A stretch of 43,428 nt of DNA from a virus (lineage: Duplodnaviria; Caudoviricetes), in the IMG/VR virus record IMGVR_UViG_3300017766_001361, positions 1 through 43,428 of that record, one strand, 5' to 3'. Shown here piece by piece: positions 32,177 through 43,029 of this stretch (the stretch's first letter is position 1; the number at the start of each line of letters is the position of its first letter). A program made the position numbers and the translations under genes. The notes beneath the pieces are model-generated. The model made no database searches, was not told the DNA's origin, and saw only the letters and a list, made by a program, of their open reading frames with translations.

Positions 32177-32389
32177 ATGAAATCAAGATGCACTAAAGAG
32201 GAATTGCTAAAACACATTCGAGCACAGATACGGCGCGAATATGAAAGCCAAGTTGAGGCTGCTAATGATATGAATCAGTCTCCACCATATTTAAATATGG
32301 CTTTAAATGGAAAGCTGAAGGAAATACCAGGCTGGCTAATTGAGCGGTTCGGCTACAGAAAAACGGTTGTTTATGAGCGGGTTAAGTAA
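32177..32389 (+). CDS. Cro-like helix-turn-helix protein
   Basis: SQVEAANDMNQSPPYLNMALNGK HTH pattern; first gene of the rightward operon. Confidence 0.7.
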   Translation: MKSRCTKEELLKHIRAQIRREYESQVEAANDMNQSPPYLNMALNGKLKEIPGWLIERFGYRKTVVYERVK

Positions 32390-32468
32390 CGACGCCTTTT
32401 AACTCGGCGTTTAACTAATGAAAATTTAACCGACTTACAAGCCGTCCTTTTTGAACAACTTGTTACAT
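32384..32468 (-). repeat. attC-like site 1 (degenerate left arm)
   Basis: AAGTAAC...CGGC...GCCG..TTGAAC-AACTT-GTTACAT; L-box pairing poor. Confidence 0.65.
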
Positions 32469-32492
32469 TTACTTTTTGCCGATGGGGGCGAT

Positions 32493-32789
32493 ATGAATTT
32501 ATTGAAAGAAACAAAAGAGCTTTTGGAGGAAAAAGGGAAGACCATATTTGACGTTTTATGGATTGGAACCAAAGACGCTGTTTGGGATGTTGATATTCAA
32601 CAGTTATTTAATGTTGATTACGATGATGGATTTGGAGTCCAAGAAATACCCGACGAGCTTATTGTTGTGGGCGAGGATTGGTGGCTAGAGCGCCATGAGT
32701 ACGATGGTTCTGAGTGGTGGGAATTTAATACAATGCCAGTTAAGCCAACCGCTATTAAGCAAGGCGCTAATTTATTGCAGCGCTGGTAG
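32493..32789 (+). CDS. cassette 1: conserved acidic phage protein
   Basis: GGGGG RBS; YDDGFG.QE...LIVVGEDWWLERHEYDGSEWWEF. Confidence 0.75.
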   Translation: MNLLKETKELLEEKGKTIFDVLWIGTKDAVWDVDIQQLFNVDYDDGFGVQEIPDELIVVGEDWWLERHEYDGSEWWEFNTMPVKPTAIKQGANLLQRW

Positions 32790-32792
32790 TGA

Positions 32793-32880
32793 ATGTAACG
32801 CCCATGTACAGCCGCGCCAACGCCGTACTAATTAAAAACCACGGCCTATGCAGCGTCGGTGCTGCTACGCCTTGTTATGA
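32793..32880 (-). repeat. attC-like site 2
   Basis: ATGTAAC-GCCCAT-GTACAGC ... GCTGCTAC-GCCTT-GTTATGA. Confidence 0.9.
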
Positions 32881-32899
32881 CCAATTACCGGAGTGAGAT

Positions 32900-33100
32900 A
32901 TGGATACAAGACAATTTATAGAAACCCTTTGCGAAGACGGTTTTGACAACAATTCCATTATTGATTTTGTAAATACAAAGCAGGCGAGAATTGACGAGCT
33001 TGAATATGCGCTAAGTGTTTGCATGTGTGTACACGATGACGCTGAAAATATGACAGGCGCACAGCGTCACGCATTGGCGATGAAGGTTTTAGACTGCTAG
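32900..33100 (+). CDS. cassette 2: hypothetical protein
   Basis: GGAG RBS; fills the cassette. Confidence 0.7.
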   Translation: MDTRQFIETLCEDGFDNNSIIDFVNTKQARIDELEYALSVCMCVHDDAENMTGAQRHALAMKVLDC

Positions 33101-33184
33101 TCATAACGCCAAGTTCAGCCCGTGGCGGGGAGTAGAGATTAAATGGCCGATTCTAGCACCATCGGCTGCAACTTTTTGTTATGT
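33101..33184 (-). repeat. attC-like site 3
   Basis: TCATAAC-GCCAA-GTTCAGC ... GCTGCAAC-TTTTT-GTTATGT. Confidence 0.92.
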
Positions 33185-33210
33185 GCAACTGTGCTTGCGA
33201 GGATTTAGAA

Positions 33211-33375
33211 ATGTGGTGCTGTTACTTCAAAGATGGAGAGCTGATAGTTTCAAGCTTGCGCGGAACACAGAAAGGAAGCCAAACTGCAGTTGTTAAAAAG
33301 CTAGGCTTTCAAAGCTGGAAGAATGCGAAAGATCACGGGATAAGATGTTACGAGGTTGAAGTAAAAAAGTGTTGA
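33211..33375 (+). CDS. cassette 3: hypothetical protein (54 aa)
   Basis: GAGGA RBS before ATG 33211. Confidence 0.65.
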   Translation: MWCCYFKDGELIVSSLRGTQKGSQTAVVKKLGFQSWKNAKDHGIRCYEVEVKKC

Positions 33376-33383
33376 TGCGACAC

Positions 33384-33470
33384 ACATAACACCCATGTTC
33401 AGCGGCGGCGTTTTACAAATTGAGCAGTGCGTGACTCTAACACCGTCCGTGCTGGAACTCCTTGTTATGA
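33384..33470 (-). repeat. attC-like site 4
   Basis: ACATAAC-ACCCAT-GTTCAGC ... GCTGGAAC-TCCTT-GTTATGA. Confidence 0.9.
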
Positions 33471-33496
33471 CCAATCAATCGAAGCGAGGTAGTGGT

Positions 33497-33664
33497 ATGC
33501 GAGTTTCAGTCAGGCAAGAAAAAGATGGCTGCTGGTATGTGATAGACGAAAAAGGCGTGCGCTATTCTCAGTGTGGCCGATGGTCAACAGCAGAGCTTGC
33601 GCAAGAGGAAGCTAGAAAATTCTTGAACTCACTAGGTTATAAGAACTGTGAGCCACAGTCATAA
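33497..33664 (+). CDS. cassette 4: hypothetical protein (55 aa)
   Basis: GAGGT RBS before ATG 33497; stop codon lies in the TAAC core. Confidence 0.65.
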   Translation: MRVSVRQEKDGCWYVIDEKGVRYSQCGRWSTAELAQEEARKFLNSLGYKNCEPQS

Positions 33665-33746
33665 CGCCCATGTTCAGCGGTGCCCTTGGGGATAGAAATT
33701 AAATACGCAACGCTAGCAGCATCCGCGTTGTAACTGCTTGTTATGT
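33659..33746 (-). repeat. attC-like site 5
   Basis: TCATAAC-GCCCAT-GTTCAGC ... GTTGTAAC-TGCTT-GTTATGT. Confidence 0.9.
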
Positions 33747-33757
33747 GAGGTGACGAA

Positions 33758-34450
33758 GTGGAATTTTGGAAGGATATTACAGGCTTTGAAGGCTTTTATA
33801 AGGTTTCAAATACAGGGAAAGTTTCGTCTTGCGATAGACAAAAAGAACAGCACGGAAGAAAAAGAACGGGCCGCGAATTAAGGCTGGAACAAAACAAAGC
33901 AGGCCAAGAGAGCGTATGCCTAATGGCTTATGGAGAAAAGAAAAAGGTTCTGGTGTCAAGAATTGTGGCGTCTGAATTTATTAGACCTTTGAAAAAAGGT
34001 GAATCTGTATTTCATTTAGATTTAGTAAAATTCAACAATAATGTAGATAATTTAATTATTTTGAAGAGTGGTAAAGATGTTATGGAGCTTGTAAATAAAT
34101 CTCTTTGCGATGGCTTTGAGAAAATAAGCAGGGATCAAATAACTGTTGAGAAAGTTAAGGAGTATTTATTTTATTTAGATGGCGATCTCTATTTTAAAAA
34201 GAGAACCGCATTAACGGTAAAGGTTGGTGAAAAATCAGGTTTTGCGCAAGAGGGGCACTGGAAAATACATTTGTGCGGTGAGACTTATATGAGAAATTGG
34301 CTTATATATTTTTTACACACGGGCGAGCGCAATGATTATGTCTTGCCTAAAAACGGTGATTTTATGGATGGAAGGGTTGAAAATTTATATTCGGTAAGCG
34401 CAAGCGAATATGCGAAAATCACAGACAGGGTGCAAAACATTCACACATAA
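33758..34450 (+). CDS. cassette 5: NUMOD4-domain protein with degenerate HNH-like motifs
   Basis: WKDITGFEGFYKVSNTGKV (NUMOD4); VFHLDLVKFNNNVDNL and PKNGDFMDGRVENL; GAGGTG RBS. Confidence 0.8.
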   Translation: MEFWKDITGFEGFYKVSNTGKVSSCDRQKEQHGRKRTGRELRLEQNKAGQESVCLMAYGEKKKVLVSRIVASEFIRPLKKGESVFHLDLVKFNNNVDNLIILKSGKDVMELVNKSLCDGFEKISRDQITVEKVKEYLFYLDGDLYFKKRTALTVKVGEKSGFAQEGHWKIHLCGETYMRNWLIYFLHTGERNDYVLPKNGDFMDGRVENLYSVSASEYAKITDRVQNIHT

Positions 34451-34578
34451 CGCCCATGTTCAGCGGCAGGATTTAAGGCGAATTTTTATGGAATACTTTG
34501 CGAAGCAAACCATAAAAAGGCGACTTAAAGACTGTCCAACGTAGCGCAGCGGAGTGGTGCTGCAACGACTTGTTACAA
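34445..34578 (-). repeat. attC-like site 6 (long, 134 bp)
   Basis: ACATAAC-GCCCAT-GTTCAGC..TTTAAG..TTTTTATGG/CCATAAAAA..CTTAAA..GCTGCAAC-GACTT-GTTACAA. Confidence 0.9.
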
Positions 34579-34648
34579 ATGTTTTACAGCAAAAAACTTA
34601 GACAAAAACGGCTTTTAATTTTTTAACTTTAATACAAAGAGGTTTTCT

Positions 34649-34807
34649 ATGAATTTAACAGACAGAACTAAGCTCGTCCTTGAACTAATGAAAGTAAAGC
34701 CTTCGCTAACAGCTGAGAAAGCTGCCGAAGAAATTATTTTGATTCAGAAATTGCTTGTGAAGCAGGGGTTCCTTGCACGACTTTTAAGCAAGCTTCATAC
34801 AGCTTAA
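34649..34807 (+). CDS. cassette 6: small ORF a (52 aa, absent from ORF track)
   Basis: AGAGG RBS; MNLTDRTKLVLELMKVKPSLTAEKAAEEIILIQKLLVKQGFLARLLSKLHTA. Confidence 0.55.
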   Translation: MNLTDRTKLVLELMKVKPSLTAEKAAEEIILIQKLLVKQGFLARLLSKLHTA

Positions 34808-34904
34808 GTCTTTCTAAGTTGGTGCCATTGCCATAATCACAGTTACGGTACAGCTTGTAAGCGACTTCTTCTTTTGAGTTAATTTCAAGATTTGCATCTG
34901 ACAT
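34734..34904 (-). CDS. cassette 6: small ORF b (56 aa, absent from ORF track)
   Basis: AAGGAG RBS; MSDANLEINSKEEVAYKLYRNCDYGNGTNLERLKLYEACLKVVQGTPASQAISESK. Confidence 0.6.
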   Translation of the reverse strand: MSDANLEINSKEEVAYKLYRNCDYGNGTNLERLKLYEACLKVVQGTPASQAISESK

Positions 34905-34943
34905 TGGTACTTCTCCTTTGGTGATGTGCTAATTGCACTGACT

Positions 34944-35029
34944 TTGTAACGCTTAGCGCAAATGCGCGCTGGGAGTAAGAGTTAAAAACCGATATTTAAA
35001 CCGCGTCATTTTGACGCTACTTGTTACAT
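34944..35029 (-). repeat. attC-like site 7
   Basis: TTGTAAC..AGCGCAAATG-CGCG ... CGCG-T-CATTTTG-A-CGCT-ACTT-GTTACAT. Confidence 0.85.
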
Positions 35030-35058
35030 TTACTTTTAACTACAAGGCGTTTACTAAA

Positions 35059-35232
35059 ATGGCAGAACAAACAGAAGTAATCATTCGGGCAAACTCAACT
35101 ATAAAATTGAAAACTCCAAGCGGAATGACTAGCACTTGGACTTACGTAAAAGGCACAACGGCAAAGGCTATGCTGGACGATATTGCGCGCTCACTTGGCT
35201 ACGAAGTTGTGCCGAAAGTTAAAAGCCAGTGA
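35059..35232 (+). CDS. cassette 7: hypothetical protein (57 aa)
   Basis: ATG 35059; fills the cassette. Confidence 0.6.
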   Translation: MAEQTEVIIRANSTIKLKTPSGMTSTWTYVKGTTAKAMLDDIARSLGYEVVPKVKSQ

Positions 35233-35396
35233 ATGTAACAGCGGAATCAAAGGGCCACCCATTAAAACTCCGACATTTAGACGACAAGCATCATTGATTT
35301 TATTTGAGTTTTTCAGTGTGTTTGTAGTTTTACGGCCTAGGCCGCAATTCCACAAAATCAGCACCAATACGGTGCTTTGAACTAAATAGGTGCAGA
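35233..35396 (-). other. attI-like terminal element, copy A
   Basis: Single core (GTTACAT on minus strand), no closing attC arm; homologous to 42866-43029. Confidence 0.65.
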
Positions 35397-38166: not shown

Positions 38167-38403
38167 ATGCAATCAAAAAAAGGAAGCGCCATAGAATCGG
38201 CTATAAATATCGCTATTGGGTTTGGTGTGGCTTTGGGTAGTCAGTTGGTAATATTCCCGCTCTACGGCGTTCATGTACCGATTGAGACTGATTTGGCAAT
38301 AACCTGCTGGTTCACATTAATAAGTTTTGCGCGCAGTTATTTTATTCGCAGGATATTTAATGGTCTAAGCGTAAAGATTTGCAATGATTCTACTAAACAA
38401 TAA
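38167..38403 (+). CDS. small membrane protein typical of phage methylase neighbourhoods
   Basis: MQSKKGSAIES..NIAIGF...FTLISFARSYFIRRIFN. Confidence 0.75.
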   Translation: MQSKKGSAIESAINIAIGFGVALGSQLVIFPLYGVHVPIETDLAITCWFTLISFARSYFIRRIFNGLSVKICNDSTKQ

Positions 38404-40927: not shown

Positions 40928-41197
40928 ATGTACGTAGATTTAAATACACAGTTCAAAATTAGAAACAAGGTAACAGGCGAGATTAAGACCGCATACCAAG
41001 GCCACAAGTTGTGGTTAATCGTAGATGAGAAAGGGGTTGAGATAATGGCAGATTGGGAAGTATGCGAAGATGTAGGCGTGTTCAAATCAATCACAGCGCT
41101 TTCGTCTATATTTTTTATTGCAGGGTTCATTTACTGGGTTTGTTTTTCTGAGTCGTTTTATTTGCGAGTTTTAAGTTTATGTGATGTTTGTAGTTAA
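40928..41197 (+). CDS. hypothetical protein with C-terminal TM segment
   Basis: AGGAG RBS; stop codon lies in the TAAC core of attC-like site 8. Confidence 0.6.
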   Translation: MYVDLNTQFKIRNKVTGEIKTAYQGHKLWLIVDEKGVEIMADWEVCEDVGVFKSITALSSIFFIAGFIYWVCFSESFYLRVLSLCDVCS

Positions 41198-41275
41198 CGC
41201 CGTTATAAACGGTGCGCAGTACGAAAATTAATAATGCGGTGTTCTATCCGCATCCGTTTGATGACTTTGTTACAC
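41192..41275 (-). repeat. attC-like site 8
   Basis: AGTTAAC-GCCGT-TATAAAC-GG-TGCG ... CGCA-T-CC-GTTTGATG-ACTTT-GTTACAC. Confidence 0.9.
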
Positions 41276-41298
41276 AAAACTAAACTTGGAGATTTACT

Positions 41299-41712
41299 AT
41301 GTTTGCTTTAATTGAAACTAACAACGCCACCCACATTGCTATTAATATTCCGCTTGATGGCGCAGATAAAACCTTACCAGCTCTTGCTGCAATGCTTGAG
41401 AATAACGCTGTATTTATCCGCAAGGACTATTCAAGCTGCCAAAGTGTTACACCAAAAATGAGTTTTATTTTAGGCGATAAAGTTCCTTTTGACACCTACG
41501 AAACGGAACTTGTAATTCAAAAATCAAGTTGCGCAATAGGTGAAGATTTTGTAGTTGAGTCACCCGATGTGATTGTCAGTAACGCAAAAGGTCTAAAAAG
41601 CAAAAGCGAACAAATTACAAAACAGAACACGGAGATTGCATTTTTAAAATCAGAGCTAGAAACACTCAAGGCTAAAATTGCAGAATTAAGCCAAGACACT
41701 GCGCCTGTGTAA
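41299..41712 (+). CDS. cassette 8: hypothetical protein with C-terminal coiled coil
   Basis: GGAG RBS; stop codon in the TAAC core. Confidence 0.75.
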   Translation: MFALIETNNATHIAINIPLDGADKTLPALAAMLENNAVFIRKDYSSCQSVTPKMSFILGDKVPFDTYETELVIQKSSCAIGEDFVVESPDVIVSNAKGLKSKSEQITKQNTEIAFLKSELETLKAKIAELSQDTAPV

Positions 41713-41789
41713 CGCCGTTATAAACGGTGCCAGTACGAAAATTAATAGTGCGGTGTTCTAGCCGCATCCGTTTGATAACCTTGTTAAGT
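41707..41789 (-). repeat. attC-like site 9
   Basis: GTGTAAC-GCCGT-TATAAAC ... GTTTGATA-ACCTT-GTTAAGT; near-identical to site 8. Confidence 0.9.
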
Positions 41790-41802
41790 TTGGTGGCTAC
41801 TT

Positions 41803-42027
41803 GTGAATATGTTTAACGAACACCCTGATTGGGTTGGTATGCCTGAATTTGTGCAGGAAAAGAAATATCCTTACAAAACCCTGATTGTTAGGTTTGAAAC
41901 AGAGCAAGACTATAATGATTTTGCACAATTGATAGGGCAAAAACTAACAAGTAAGACAAAAAGCATATGGCACCCGTTTAAGTCGCATTGTGGATTAGAA
42001 AAAAAGGTGTACAAAAATGCCGACTAG
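41803..42027 (+). CDS. cassette 9: small partner of the glycosyltransferase
   Basis: WVGMPEFVQE...IVRFETEQDY..FAQLIGQKLT.KTKSIWHP; overlaps the next gene. Confidence 0.75.
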   Translation: MNMFNEHPDWVGMPEFVQEKKYPYKTLIVRFETEQDYNDFAQLIGQKLTSKTKSIWHPFKSHCGLEKKVYKNAD

Positions 42028-42871
42028 ATACCCCGTGTATATTGTTTCAAAAGGTAGGTATAAAAACGGACTTACCACAAAAGCGCTTGATGTAATGGGT
42101 GTTAAGCACTTTATAGTTTGTGAAGAATTTGAAGCTGATTTATACCGCGAACACACGAGCGCTGAAATACTGGTTTTACCGCAAGAGTATTTAGATTCTT
42201 ATGATACGTGTGACGATTTTGGAAAAGAAAAAAGCAAAGGCCCAGGGGCTGCTAGGAATTTTTGCATAGACCATAGCGCACAATTCAAGCGCCATTGGGT
42301 TATGGATGATAATTTAGATGCGTTCCATTACCTAAACAGAAACGAAAAATTCGAGGTTGAGTGTGACGGGACGCTGAGGGCCGCTGAAGATTTTGTAGAT
42401 AGGTATTCAAATGTTCCGGTGGCAGGTTTTAATTATTATTCATTCTGCAAAAAGACAGATAAGTTGCCGCCGTTTATTTGTAATACAAGAATATATTCAT
42501 GCCTTCTTATTGAAAATGGCGCTGGCTATAGGTGGCGAGGTAGATACAATGAAGATACAGACCTAAGCTTGCGAATACTAAAAGACGGACTCTGTACAAT
42601 ACAGTTTAATGCGTTTTTGTGCGGGAAGGTTACAACGCAGCGAATGAGCGGCGGTAATACGAAAGAGTTTTATGATGACGAAGGCACATTGCCAAAATCC
42701 GAAATGCTTGCAAAGTTGCACCCAGACGTTGCGAAAGTTGTGTTTAAGTTTGGGCGATGGCACCACCATGTAGATTACAAACCATTCAAAAAAAATAGAC
42801 TTGTTTTGGCGGATAAAGATAAGGTTTATTCTGGTACTGACAACTACGGTATGCGATTGGTTTCAACTTAA
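42017..42871 (+). CDS. cassette 9: GT-A fold glycosyltransferase (TET-associated/GREB1-like)
   Basis: YPVYIVSKGR, GPGAARN, HWVMDDN, RIYSCLLI, WRGRYNEDTDLSLR, TQ...GGN. Confidence 0.75.
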   Translation: MPTRYPVYIVSKGRYKNGLTTKALDVMGVKHFIVCEEFEADLYREHTSAEILVLPQEYLDSYDTCDDFGKEKSKGPGAARNFCIDHSAQFKRHWVMDDNLDAFHYLNRNEKFEVECDGTLRAAEDFVDRYSNVPVAGFNYYSFCKKTDKLPPFICNTRIYSCLLIENGAGYRWRGRYNEDTDLSLRILKDGLCTIQFNAFLCGKVTTQRMSGGNTKEFYDDEGTLPKSEMLAKLHPDVAKVVFKFGRWHHHVDYKPFKKNRLVLADKDKVYSGTDNYGMRLVST

Positions 42872-43029
42872 CAGTTTATTCAACTGGTTGACCCGCGAAA
42901 CTACGACATTTTGACGACAGGCTTCATTGATTTTATTGAAGTTTTTCGGTGTGTTTGTAGTTTTAATGGGTAGGCCGCATTTCCACAAAAATTGAACCAA
43001 AATCGTGCAAAGCACAAAAGAGGTGCAAA
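42866..43029 (-). other. attI-like terminal element, copy B
   Basis: Single core (GTTAAGT on minus strand); homologous to 35233-35396. Confidence 0.65.

Follow-up and report, generated by a model that had tools for sequence, protein, structure and literature searches.

Inversion of cassette genes relative to their attC sites in the integron-like arrays of an uncultured phage and its relatives

Sites, cassettes, and polarity of the two arrays

The record IMGVR_UViG_3300017766_001361 of the IMG/VR virus collection, which was analysed in its whole length of 43,428 bases (termed the window; completeness rating 71%), carries two arrays of gene cassettes delimited by integron-type attC sites. All nine attC sites are of minus polarity, and eight of the nine cassettes contain open reading frames (ORFs) on the plus strand exclusively; the cassette genes are, hence, inverted relative to their own sites.

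A scan scoring both polarities detected eight attC-like sites, namely, S1 (32793-32880, 88 nt, phage type), S2 (33101-33184, 84 nt), S3 (33384-33470, 87 nt), S4 (33659-33746, 88 nt), S5 (34445-34578, 134 nt, host type), S6 (34944-35029, 86 nt), S8 (41192-41275, the tail of array 2), and S9 (41707-41789), while in 30 Markov resamples of the window the number of sites averaged 0.23 and never exceeded 2. In all eight, the 8-nt L box with the extra base and the 5-nt spacer lie on the right arm of the plus strand, as a sequence-only reading of the segment 32793-35029 had stated. The L boxes quoted in that reading are all present, with the correction that the pair TATAAAC/GTTTGATG belongs to S8, outside that segment; its third site is S2, the minus strand of which reads as claimed. 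A ninth site, S0 (32384-32468, also minus), forms the tail of array 1 and escapes the scan, owing to an inversion of 18 nt (32391-32408) in its left arm; intact relatives of it are present in other loci. This micro-inversion is flanked by short inverted repeats and would lock the adjoining cassette A; both a natural origin and an artefact of assembly are conceivable. Seven sites are, thus, located in array 1 and two in array 2, all showing the R''-L''-L'-R' layout with an extrahelical base and a single polarity. With no intI gene in the neighbourhood, the arrays represent clusters of attC sites lacking an integron integrase (CALINs).

The minus polarity is confirmed by independent comparisons. 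The bottom strand of attC-aadA7, as given in Table S3 of PMC9892861, has the same layout as the plus strand of the window. In bacterial loci that contain intI, the extra-base rule was compared with the geometry given by this gene and agrees with it at 131 of the 134 scanned sites; one of the three misses falls over the intI-attI interval itself. A covariance model, built on 36 of 44 short bacterial attC sites (eight near-duplicates being dropped) with the orientation taken from intI, assigns 9/9 window sites to the minus strand (E<=0.002 for seven sites, 0.17 and 0.79 for the remaining two); it also produced one unrelated plus-strand match (E 0.38). Thereby, the strand check proposed in the sequence-only reading was run with a bacterial model, and its assignment of polarity stands. 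Shewanella phage M16-3 carries a homologue of S5 within a complete integron; this homologue is oriented alike, intI lying to the right of it. Folding without constraints gave no distinction between the strands.

In array 1, cassette A (32462-32799) encodes a 98-aa ORF (32493-32789; phrog_3972), cassette B (32874-33107) a 66-aa ORF (32900-33100), cassette C (33178-33390) a 54-64-aa ORF ending at 33375, cassette D (33464-33665) a 55-65-aa ORF ending at 33664, cassette E (33740-34451) a 230-aa NUMOD4/HNH protein (33758-34450), and cassette G (35023-35239), in first position beside the attI element described below, a 57-aa ORF (35059-35232). Array 2 comprises cassette H (41269-41713) with a 137-aa ORF (41299-41712) and cassette I (41783-42872) with two genes, a 74-aa ORF and a 284-aa TET-associated glycosyltransferase (PF20691). 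All of these genes are on the plus strand and, thus, do not run toward their own attC in the direction of a cassette promoter (Pc). The sole exception to the count of eight plus-strand cassettes, which otherwise holds as first described, is cassette F (34572-34950), with the overlapping convergent ORFs 34649-34807 (plus, 52 aa) and 34734-34904 (minus, 56 aa). Its host-type attC suggested a captured host cassette. This was rejected on its only match among 251 Cellvibrionaceae genomes, which retains both convergent ORFs and, by eye, has no adjoining attC. In this Cellvibrionaceae contig (L313, G226:C24), the two ORFs, which overlap at their 3' ends, lie between direct repeats of ~38 nt; they are possibly an antisense-regulated pair.

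The 7-nt cassette ends, of the type GTTRRRY/RYYYAAC, are perfectly complementary in the 6/6 cassettes between scanned sites (e.g., 7/7 in cassette B), with end sequences that vary from cassette to cassette; the same applies to the two cassettes at attI and, by reading of the sequence, to cassette A (GTTACAT/ATGTAAC). Within one site, none of the R boxes is fully self-complementary. Ends that match across cassettes and not within sites are the pattern that recombination at the R box leaves. Dispersal of attC as a mobile insertion resembling a miniature inverted-repeat transposable element was rejected on the same grounds, the ends matching 7/7 across cassettes and never fully within a site.

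Orientation, cargo, and attC types across phages and bacteria

One attC pattern was run on the viral (IMG/VR) and on the bacterial collections, with the bacterial scan covering 38 of 64 parts and the flanks of 80 loci. A first pass gave 56 inverted, 8 canonical, and 38 unclear cases among 102 on the viral side, and 8, 47, and 29, respectively, among 84 on the bacterial side. The second pass took in more loci and accepted only cassettes with 7/7 ends. It classified 131 of the 167 IMG/VR cassettes as inverted, 7 as canonical, and 29 as unclear, and a Shine-Dalgarno (SD) motif accompanies the bottom-strand ORF in 89 viral cassettes and the top-strand ORF in none. On the bacterial side, Cellvibrionaceae integrons yielded 63 canonical, 4 inverted, and 14 unclear cassettes (81 in total), and the pattern-matched bacterial cassettes 64, 6, and 18 (of 88). 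Counted per viral contig, 40/43 are mostly inverted, two are tied, and one is mostly canonical. A GC-rich viral set, retrieved with another pattern (15 loci, one of them on a contig already counted), has 37/37 cassettes purine-rich on the bottom strand and SD motifs on the bottom strand in 12 and on the top strand in 3 cases, ORF length alone being undecisive there. One Cellvibrionaceae genome contains a contig of a lambdoid phage that is unrelated to the window (no protein match at 1e-8) and also has nine such sites and an attI, located between nin-like and lysis genes. The stop codon coincides with the TAA of the closing R box in 76/131 inverted phage cassettes versus 22/63 canonical host cassettes. 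Gene inversion relative to attC is, then, a class trait of these phages, with canonical orientation prevailing in the bacterial arrays of the survey that the sequence-only reading had called for.

That reading had also spoken of a phage-adapted cassette class, and the cargo and the attC sites bear this out. PHROG matches were obtained for 16/60 of the longest bottom-strand ORFs (out of 153 family representatives) and for 0/30 of the longest top-strand ORFs, the bottom-strand set being longer on average. The cargo includes DNA methyltransferases, Mom-like, PAPS-reductase-like, and queuine tRNA-ribosyltransferase-like proteins, and the glycosyltransferase, all of which are plausible as counter-defence genes. 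The phage attC bodies constitute a family of their own; median lengths in phages and hosts are 85 versus 131 nt for attC sites and 256 versus 440 bp for cassettes. Seven attC sites of the window share 56-62% identity with their best host match and 74-97% with their best phage match, while S5 reaches 86% identity with a chromosomal attC of Cellvibrionaceae.

The 172 phage cassette ORFs fall into 159 protein families; together with the occurrence of the same gene in different neighbourhoods and with the perfect cassette ends, this diversity indicates that the arrays have turned over recently. These observations make it very improbable that the arrays are frozen relics in which recombination has ceased, as might be read from the broken S0 and from the fact that no integrase was found.

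Host-like attC sites account for 6/243 phage sites. The clearest case is phage locus L036, where a 94% host-like attC is joined to a canonical bacterial gene of 200 aa directly at attI, antisense to the phage genes; the gene has 229 homologues, some of them named from Nitrospira, Rhodanobacter, and Gammaproteobacteria. Of the other five host-like sites, three are attached to inverted phage genes and one comes without an ORF; for the fifth, no boundaries could be set. Host integron cassettes include defence genes, according to the accessible text of bioRxiv 2024.07.02.601686, and PADLOC matches were obtained here for 4/63 host cassette ORFs, three of them strong; examples are a TIR-domain protein at L249:1597-2382 (TIR-TM, E 3e-60) and a PD-T7-3 match at L310:10145-11560. 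Because the L036 gene gave no PADLOC match, a shielding of the phage from defence cassettes by the inversion is something that we infer.

In the opposite direction, the phage-type attC pattern was found in one of the 251 Cellvibrionaceae genomes, on a phage-like contig and not in a host array, and capture of a phage-type cassette by a host array was not seen in these genomes. From integron geometry it follows that a phage cassette would be antisense if captured by a host integron, as originally proposed. An origin of the phage cassettes as flipped host cassettes was rejected as far as sampled, with a single weak match (E 5e-4) of phage cassette ORFs among 169 bacterial cassettes. A gene of the phrog_4276 family is cassette-free in the window (38167-38403) and in L001 (3944-4168) and is an inverted cassette in L032, at 56-58% identity; a step in cassette formation is a possible reading of this contrast.

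The attI element and the proposed role of the host integrase

At its right, each array ends in a homologous element of ~165 nt on the minus strand, located at 35233-35396 in array 1, where it is of host type, and at 42866-43029 in array 2; the two copies are 80% identical over 136 nt. Iterated searches found the element equally placed in ~20 other phage loci, and in 17/18 phage elements with a scanned attC nearby, the initial seven bases of the element are a 7/7 match that closes the last cassette. The motif occurs directly upstream of an integron integrase gene in two metagenome contigs (IntI scores 375 and 378 bits; cut-off 265). One of these, L249, is a complete integron in which all scanned cassettes have top-strand genes; its IntI shares 71% identity with an IntI that bears the name of Cellvibrio sp. 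BR, and as much as 81% with the IntI of genomes that belong to the same family as a Gilvimarinus genome, a family that we take to be Cellvibrionaceae. Among Cellvibrionaceae loci with an IntI at least 66% identical to that of L249, 14/16 have the motif 207-249 nt upstream of intI; near more distant intI genes it is found in only 2/19 loci. Since the motif lies upstream of related host intI genes and, in the window, closes the cassette next to it 7/7, the element at the minus-polarity head of each array is, by homology, the attI of Cellvibrionaceae chromosomal integrons, present without intI. Within 35233-35396, four copies of a ~12-nt motif are arranged as two inverted pairs shared with host attI (alignment A2) and are candidate sites for accessory integrase or host-factor binding. 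Two large metagenome contigs, L247 and L236, have a host-type attI with cassettes and no intI match in ~4 kb downstream; integrase-less attI platforms, thus, also occur in bacterial contigs.

No integrase gene was detected in the window (TIGR02249, PF00589), and 10/10 related phage records, five of which are at least 90% complete, lack a PF00589 match. A different recombinase with the opposite strand preference, for which the cassettes would be ordinary, has very little probability in view of 11/11 records without a tyrosine recombinase, of a host attI positioned at the head in minus polarity, and of the bottom strands of phage PH101 sites outperforming the top strands with IntI1 in the experiments available from PMC9892861. 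The arrays probably act like an integron and count as CALINs with attI; they are set apart from a complete integron by the missing intI and the orientation of the genes. The attI at each array head, the likely host enzyme, and the antisense host cassette in a phage go beyond the earlier description.

The genomic setting is that of a phage with P22- or lambda-like layout, as judged from PHROG matches (60 ORFs scanned) to terminase, portal, DNA transfer proteins, and lysis genes. Erf and Gam genes run leftward and adjoin array 1, while the rightward run holds initiator, DnaB, methyltransferase, NinB, and NinG genes. The first gene of the rightward operon (32177-32389, plus, 70 aa) is cro-like by position; its HTH_37 match is weak (E 0.0015, below cut-off), and its stop overlaps S0. 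A search with DnaB did not find a close isolated phage, and an Rfam scan of the window gave no matches. Between 38627 and 42871, a methyltransferase-like gene, a 278-aa gene without assignment, and the cassette-borne glycosyltransferase suggest a DNA modification module that is partly cassette-built. In a further contig (L359:18281-19713; G226:C54), the large terminase subunit shows up as two neighbouring ORFs.

The polarity might also be set by phage DNA replication, keeping the bottom strand on the single-stranded template of rolling-circle replication, and the inversion would then be a by-product and not a fit to transcription. Replication orientation does set attC folding and excision, according to the accessible text of PMC8946536; the arrays, however, share one polarity although they lie to either side of the genes for the initiator and DnaB, unlike what a bidirectional fork starting there would give, and the genes would still require the phage sense strand. 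We consider this quite improbable as the cause, albeit compatible with the model that follows.

It is likely that these phages carry integrase-less integrons that are shuffled by the host IntI and whose cassettes are fitted to phage transcription. The proposal starts from what is observed, i.e., the sites and their polarity, the attI homology, the cassette ends, the gene strand, the lack of a detected integrase, and the spread across phages. In the available text of PMC8946536, IntI is described to insert at attI via the attC bottom strand, attI sites are said to co-evolve with their own integrase, and many intI genes to be under SOS control; excision and insertion through the bottom strand have been shown with IntI1 for sites of the phages PH101 and TJE1 (PMC9892861). 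During infection of a Cellvibrio-like host, IntI would act in trans, excising cassettes at attC and inserting them at the phage attI. Phage transcription would cross the array rightward, from the tail toward attI, as the gene layout indicates, and the cassettes would be read by the rightward early transcript.

As to the origin of the platform, the phage probably acquired a host intI-attI interval in which intI was directed toward the phage operon. Such an acquisition is suggested because the phage attI ends share the start context of intI: the sequence GGTGCR-NN(N)-start terminates 9/18 phage attI and 10/21 host intI rows (some of them duplicated), and in array 1 this context (GGTGCA..ATG) is used by the phage gene at 35397. 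Subsequently, a phage gene would have taken the place of intI, and the array would have ended up antiparallel to phage transcription. As only cassettes with flipped genes would be expressed, an inverted, phage-specific pool would be selected; host cassettes would still be able to land at the phage attI, in antisense. Going further, and tentatively, many phages could run an integron economy of their own on the host integrase, in which the host attI is kept, the phage genes are flipped, and the gene pool is not shared.

Several points weigh against this model. The loci were found by patterns drawn from the window sites and are, consequently, enriched for relatives, so that the counts describe relatives and not all phages; the canonical array of phage TJE1 shows that inversion is not universal. 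With the record being 71% complete, an integrase could lie outside the window, and the GGTG motif is SD-like and could have arisen convergently. A promoter scan of the window was no better than chance (6 found versus 8.5 expected, with no minus-strand match within attI that could serve as Pc); no promoter is claimed. Furthermore, the tendency of a gene to travel with its upstream attC is modest: this site is the closer one in 8/10 homologous cassette pairs at >=60% identity (p=0.025; all 14 pairs, p=0.074). The body of the upstream attC is clearly co-inherited in two of the ten pairs, of the same L-box family in three, and different in five, one of the different bodies adjoining a 100% identical gene. 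The attC bodies have, thus, often been exchanged apart from the genes, and IntI events on the bottom strand are not sufficient to explain the arrays. The exchange probably took place via top-strand events, which some attC sites allow (PMC5027507, available text), or via phage Erf recombination.

Erf single-strand annealing between similar attC repeats might even be the main source of shuffling, with attI and attC as inherited anchors. The Erf- and Gam-like genes next to array 1, the five pairs with differing attC bodies beside near-identical genes, and the mosaic loops in three more are in favour of such a route. Arguments against annealing are the identity that stops at R boxes, which are identical in 10/10 pairs by alignment, the retained attI with its closed neighbouring cassette (17/18), the bacterial cassette placed exactly at attI in L036, and the L arms of many types that remain complementary; as the main process it is unlikely.

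Orientation of the cassette gene toward its own attC is the rule that enables integrons to express captured genes, and these phages break it systematically. Its violation with the host attI being kept points to the host IntI in trans as an engine of phage diversification. If the model is true, phages would share the enzyme with their host, not a readable gene pool; host defence cassettes would be antisense in the phage, and phage cassettes unreadable from the host Pc. New cassettes would also arise in these arrays, and their formation could be observed there, a view on cassette origin on which bear the phrog_4276 family, cassette-borne in one phage and cassette-free in two, and the three of six host-type attC sites on inverted phage genes. 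With enzyme and sites both identified, the model is directly testable.

Comparison with known systems

CALINs of phages have been published before; for the systematic inversion of genes relative to attC, no report in phages was found in a literature search with most subscription journals outside its coverage. Qi et al. (2023; PMC9892861, available text) describe the phage CALINs of TJE1, PH101, and P12002L and an attI-headed CALIN in prophage M16-3. The attC sites of PH101 and TJE1 were recombined by IntI1, bottom strands being more recombinogenic than top strands; both are presented as typical of bacterial arrays, and gene inversion is not mentioned in that text. The bottom strand assayed for PH101 corresponds to the minus strand; all 16 annotated coding sequences of the region 73,000-80,500 lie on it, and the covariance model puts four sites on the plus strand as top strand. 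Since the assayed bottom strand also carries the annotated genes, this published example is recast as inverted. TJE1 is canonical, P12002L is mixed, and M16-3 is a canonical complete integron. The scanner did not pick up the CALINs that have been published for the Vibrio phages jenny 12G5 and H188 and for Shewanella phage 3/49, and MW202573 is unclear; PhiCHU and Chronis were left out of the site scan. Two exact viral patterns gave no matches, and a generic pattern gave none on five published phages.

Common to the published phage CALINs and the arrays described here are attC clusters without intI and DNA methyltransferase cargo; a bottom-strand preference with IntI1 is established for the published sites. 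What differs from the published accounts, as far as the available text goes, is the host-cognate attI at the head of each array and the common occurrence of the class in uncultured phages. With the sedentary chromosomal integrons of Cellvibrionaceae, organized as intI, attI, and attC array, the arrays of the window share the attI motif, the attC grammar, and one host-type attC. They differ in the absence of intI, the bottom-strand genes, the shorter cassettes and attC sites, and the phage-type cargo; moreover, a LexA-like box is present in 14/21 host rows and in 0/18 phage attI.

Two further systems show a related geometry. When top-strand recombination inserts a cassette the wrong way round (Nivina et al. 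2016; PMC5027507, available text), the gene likewise faces away from Pc. In that case, a rare error turns the gene around along with its attC, while in the phage arrays the attC sites keep their alignment with attI and the inversion is confined to the genes. The inverted-intI integrons of Spirochaetota (PMC8352920 and 10.1101/2022.02.06.479319, both in their accessible parts) share a non-standard orientation of the platform; in these, intI is inverted relative to the array, whereas in the phage arrays it is the gene that is inverted relative to its attC.

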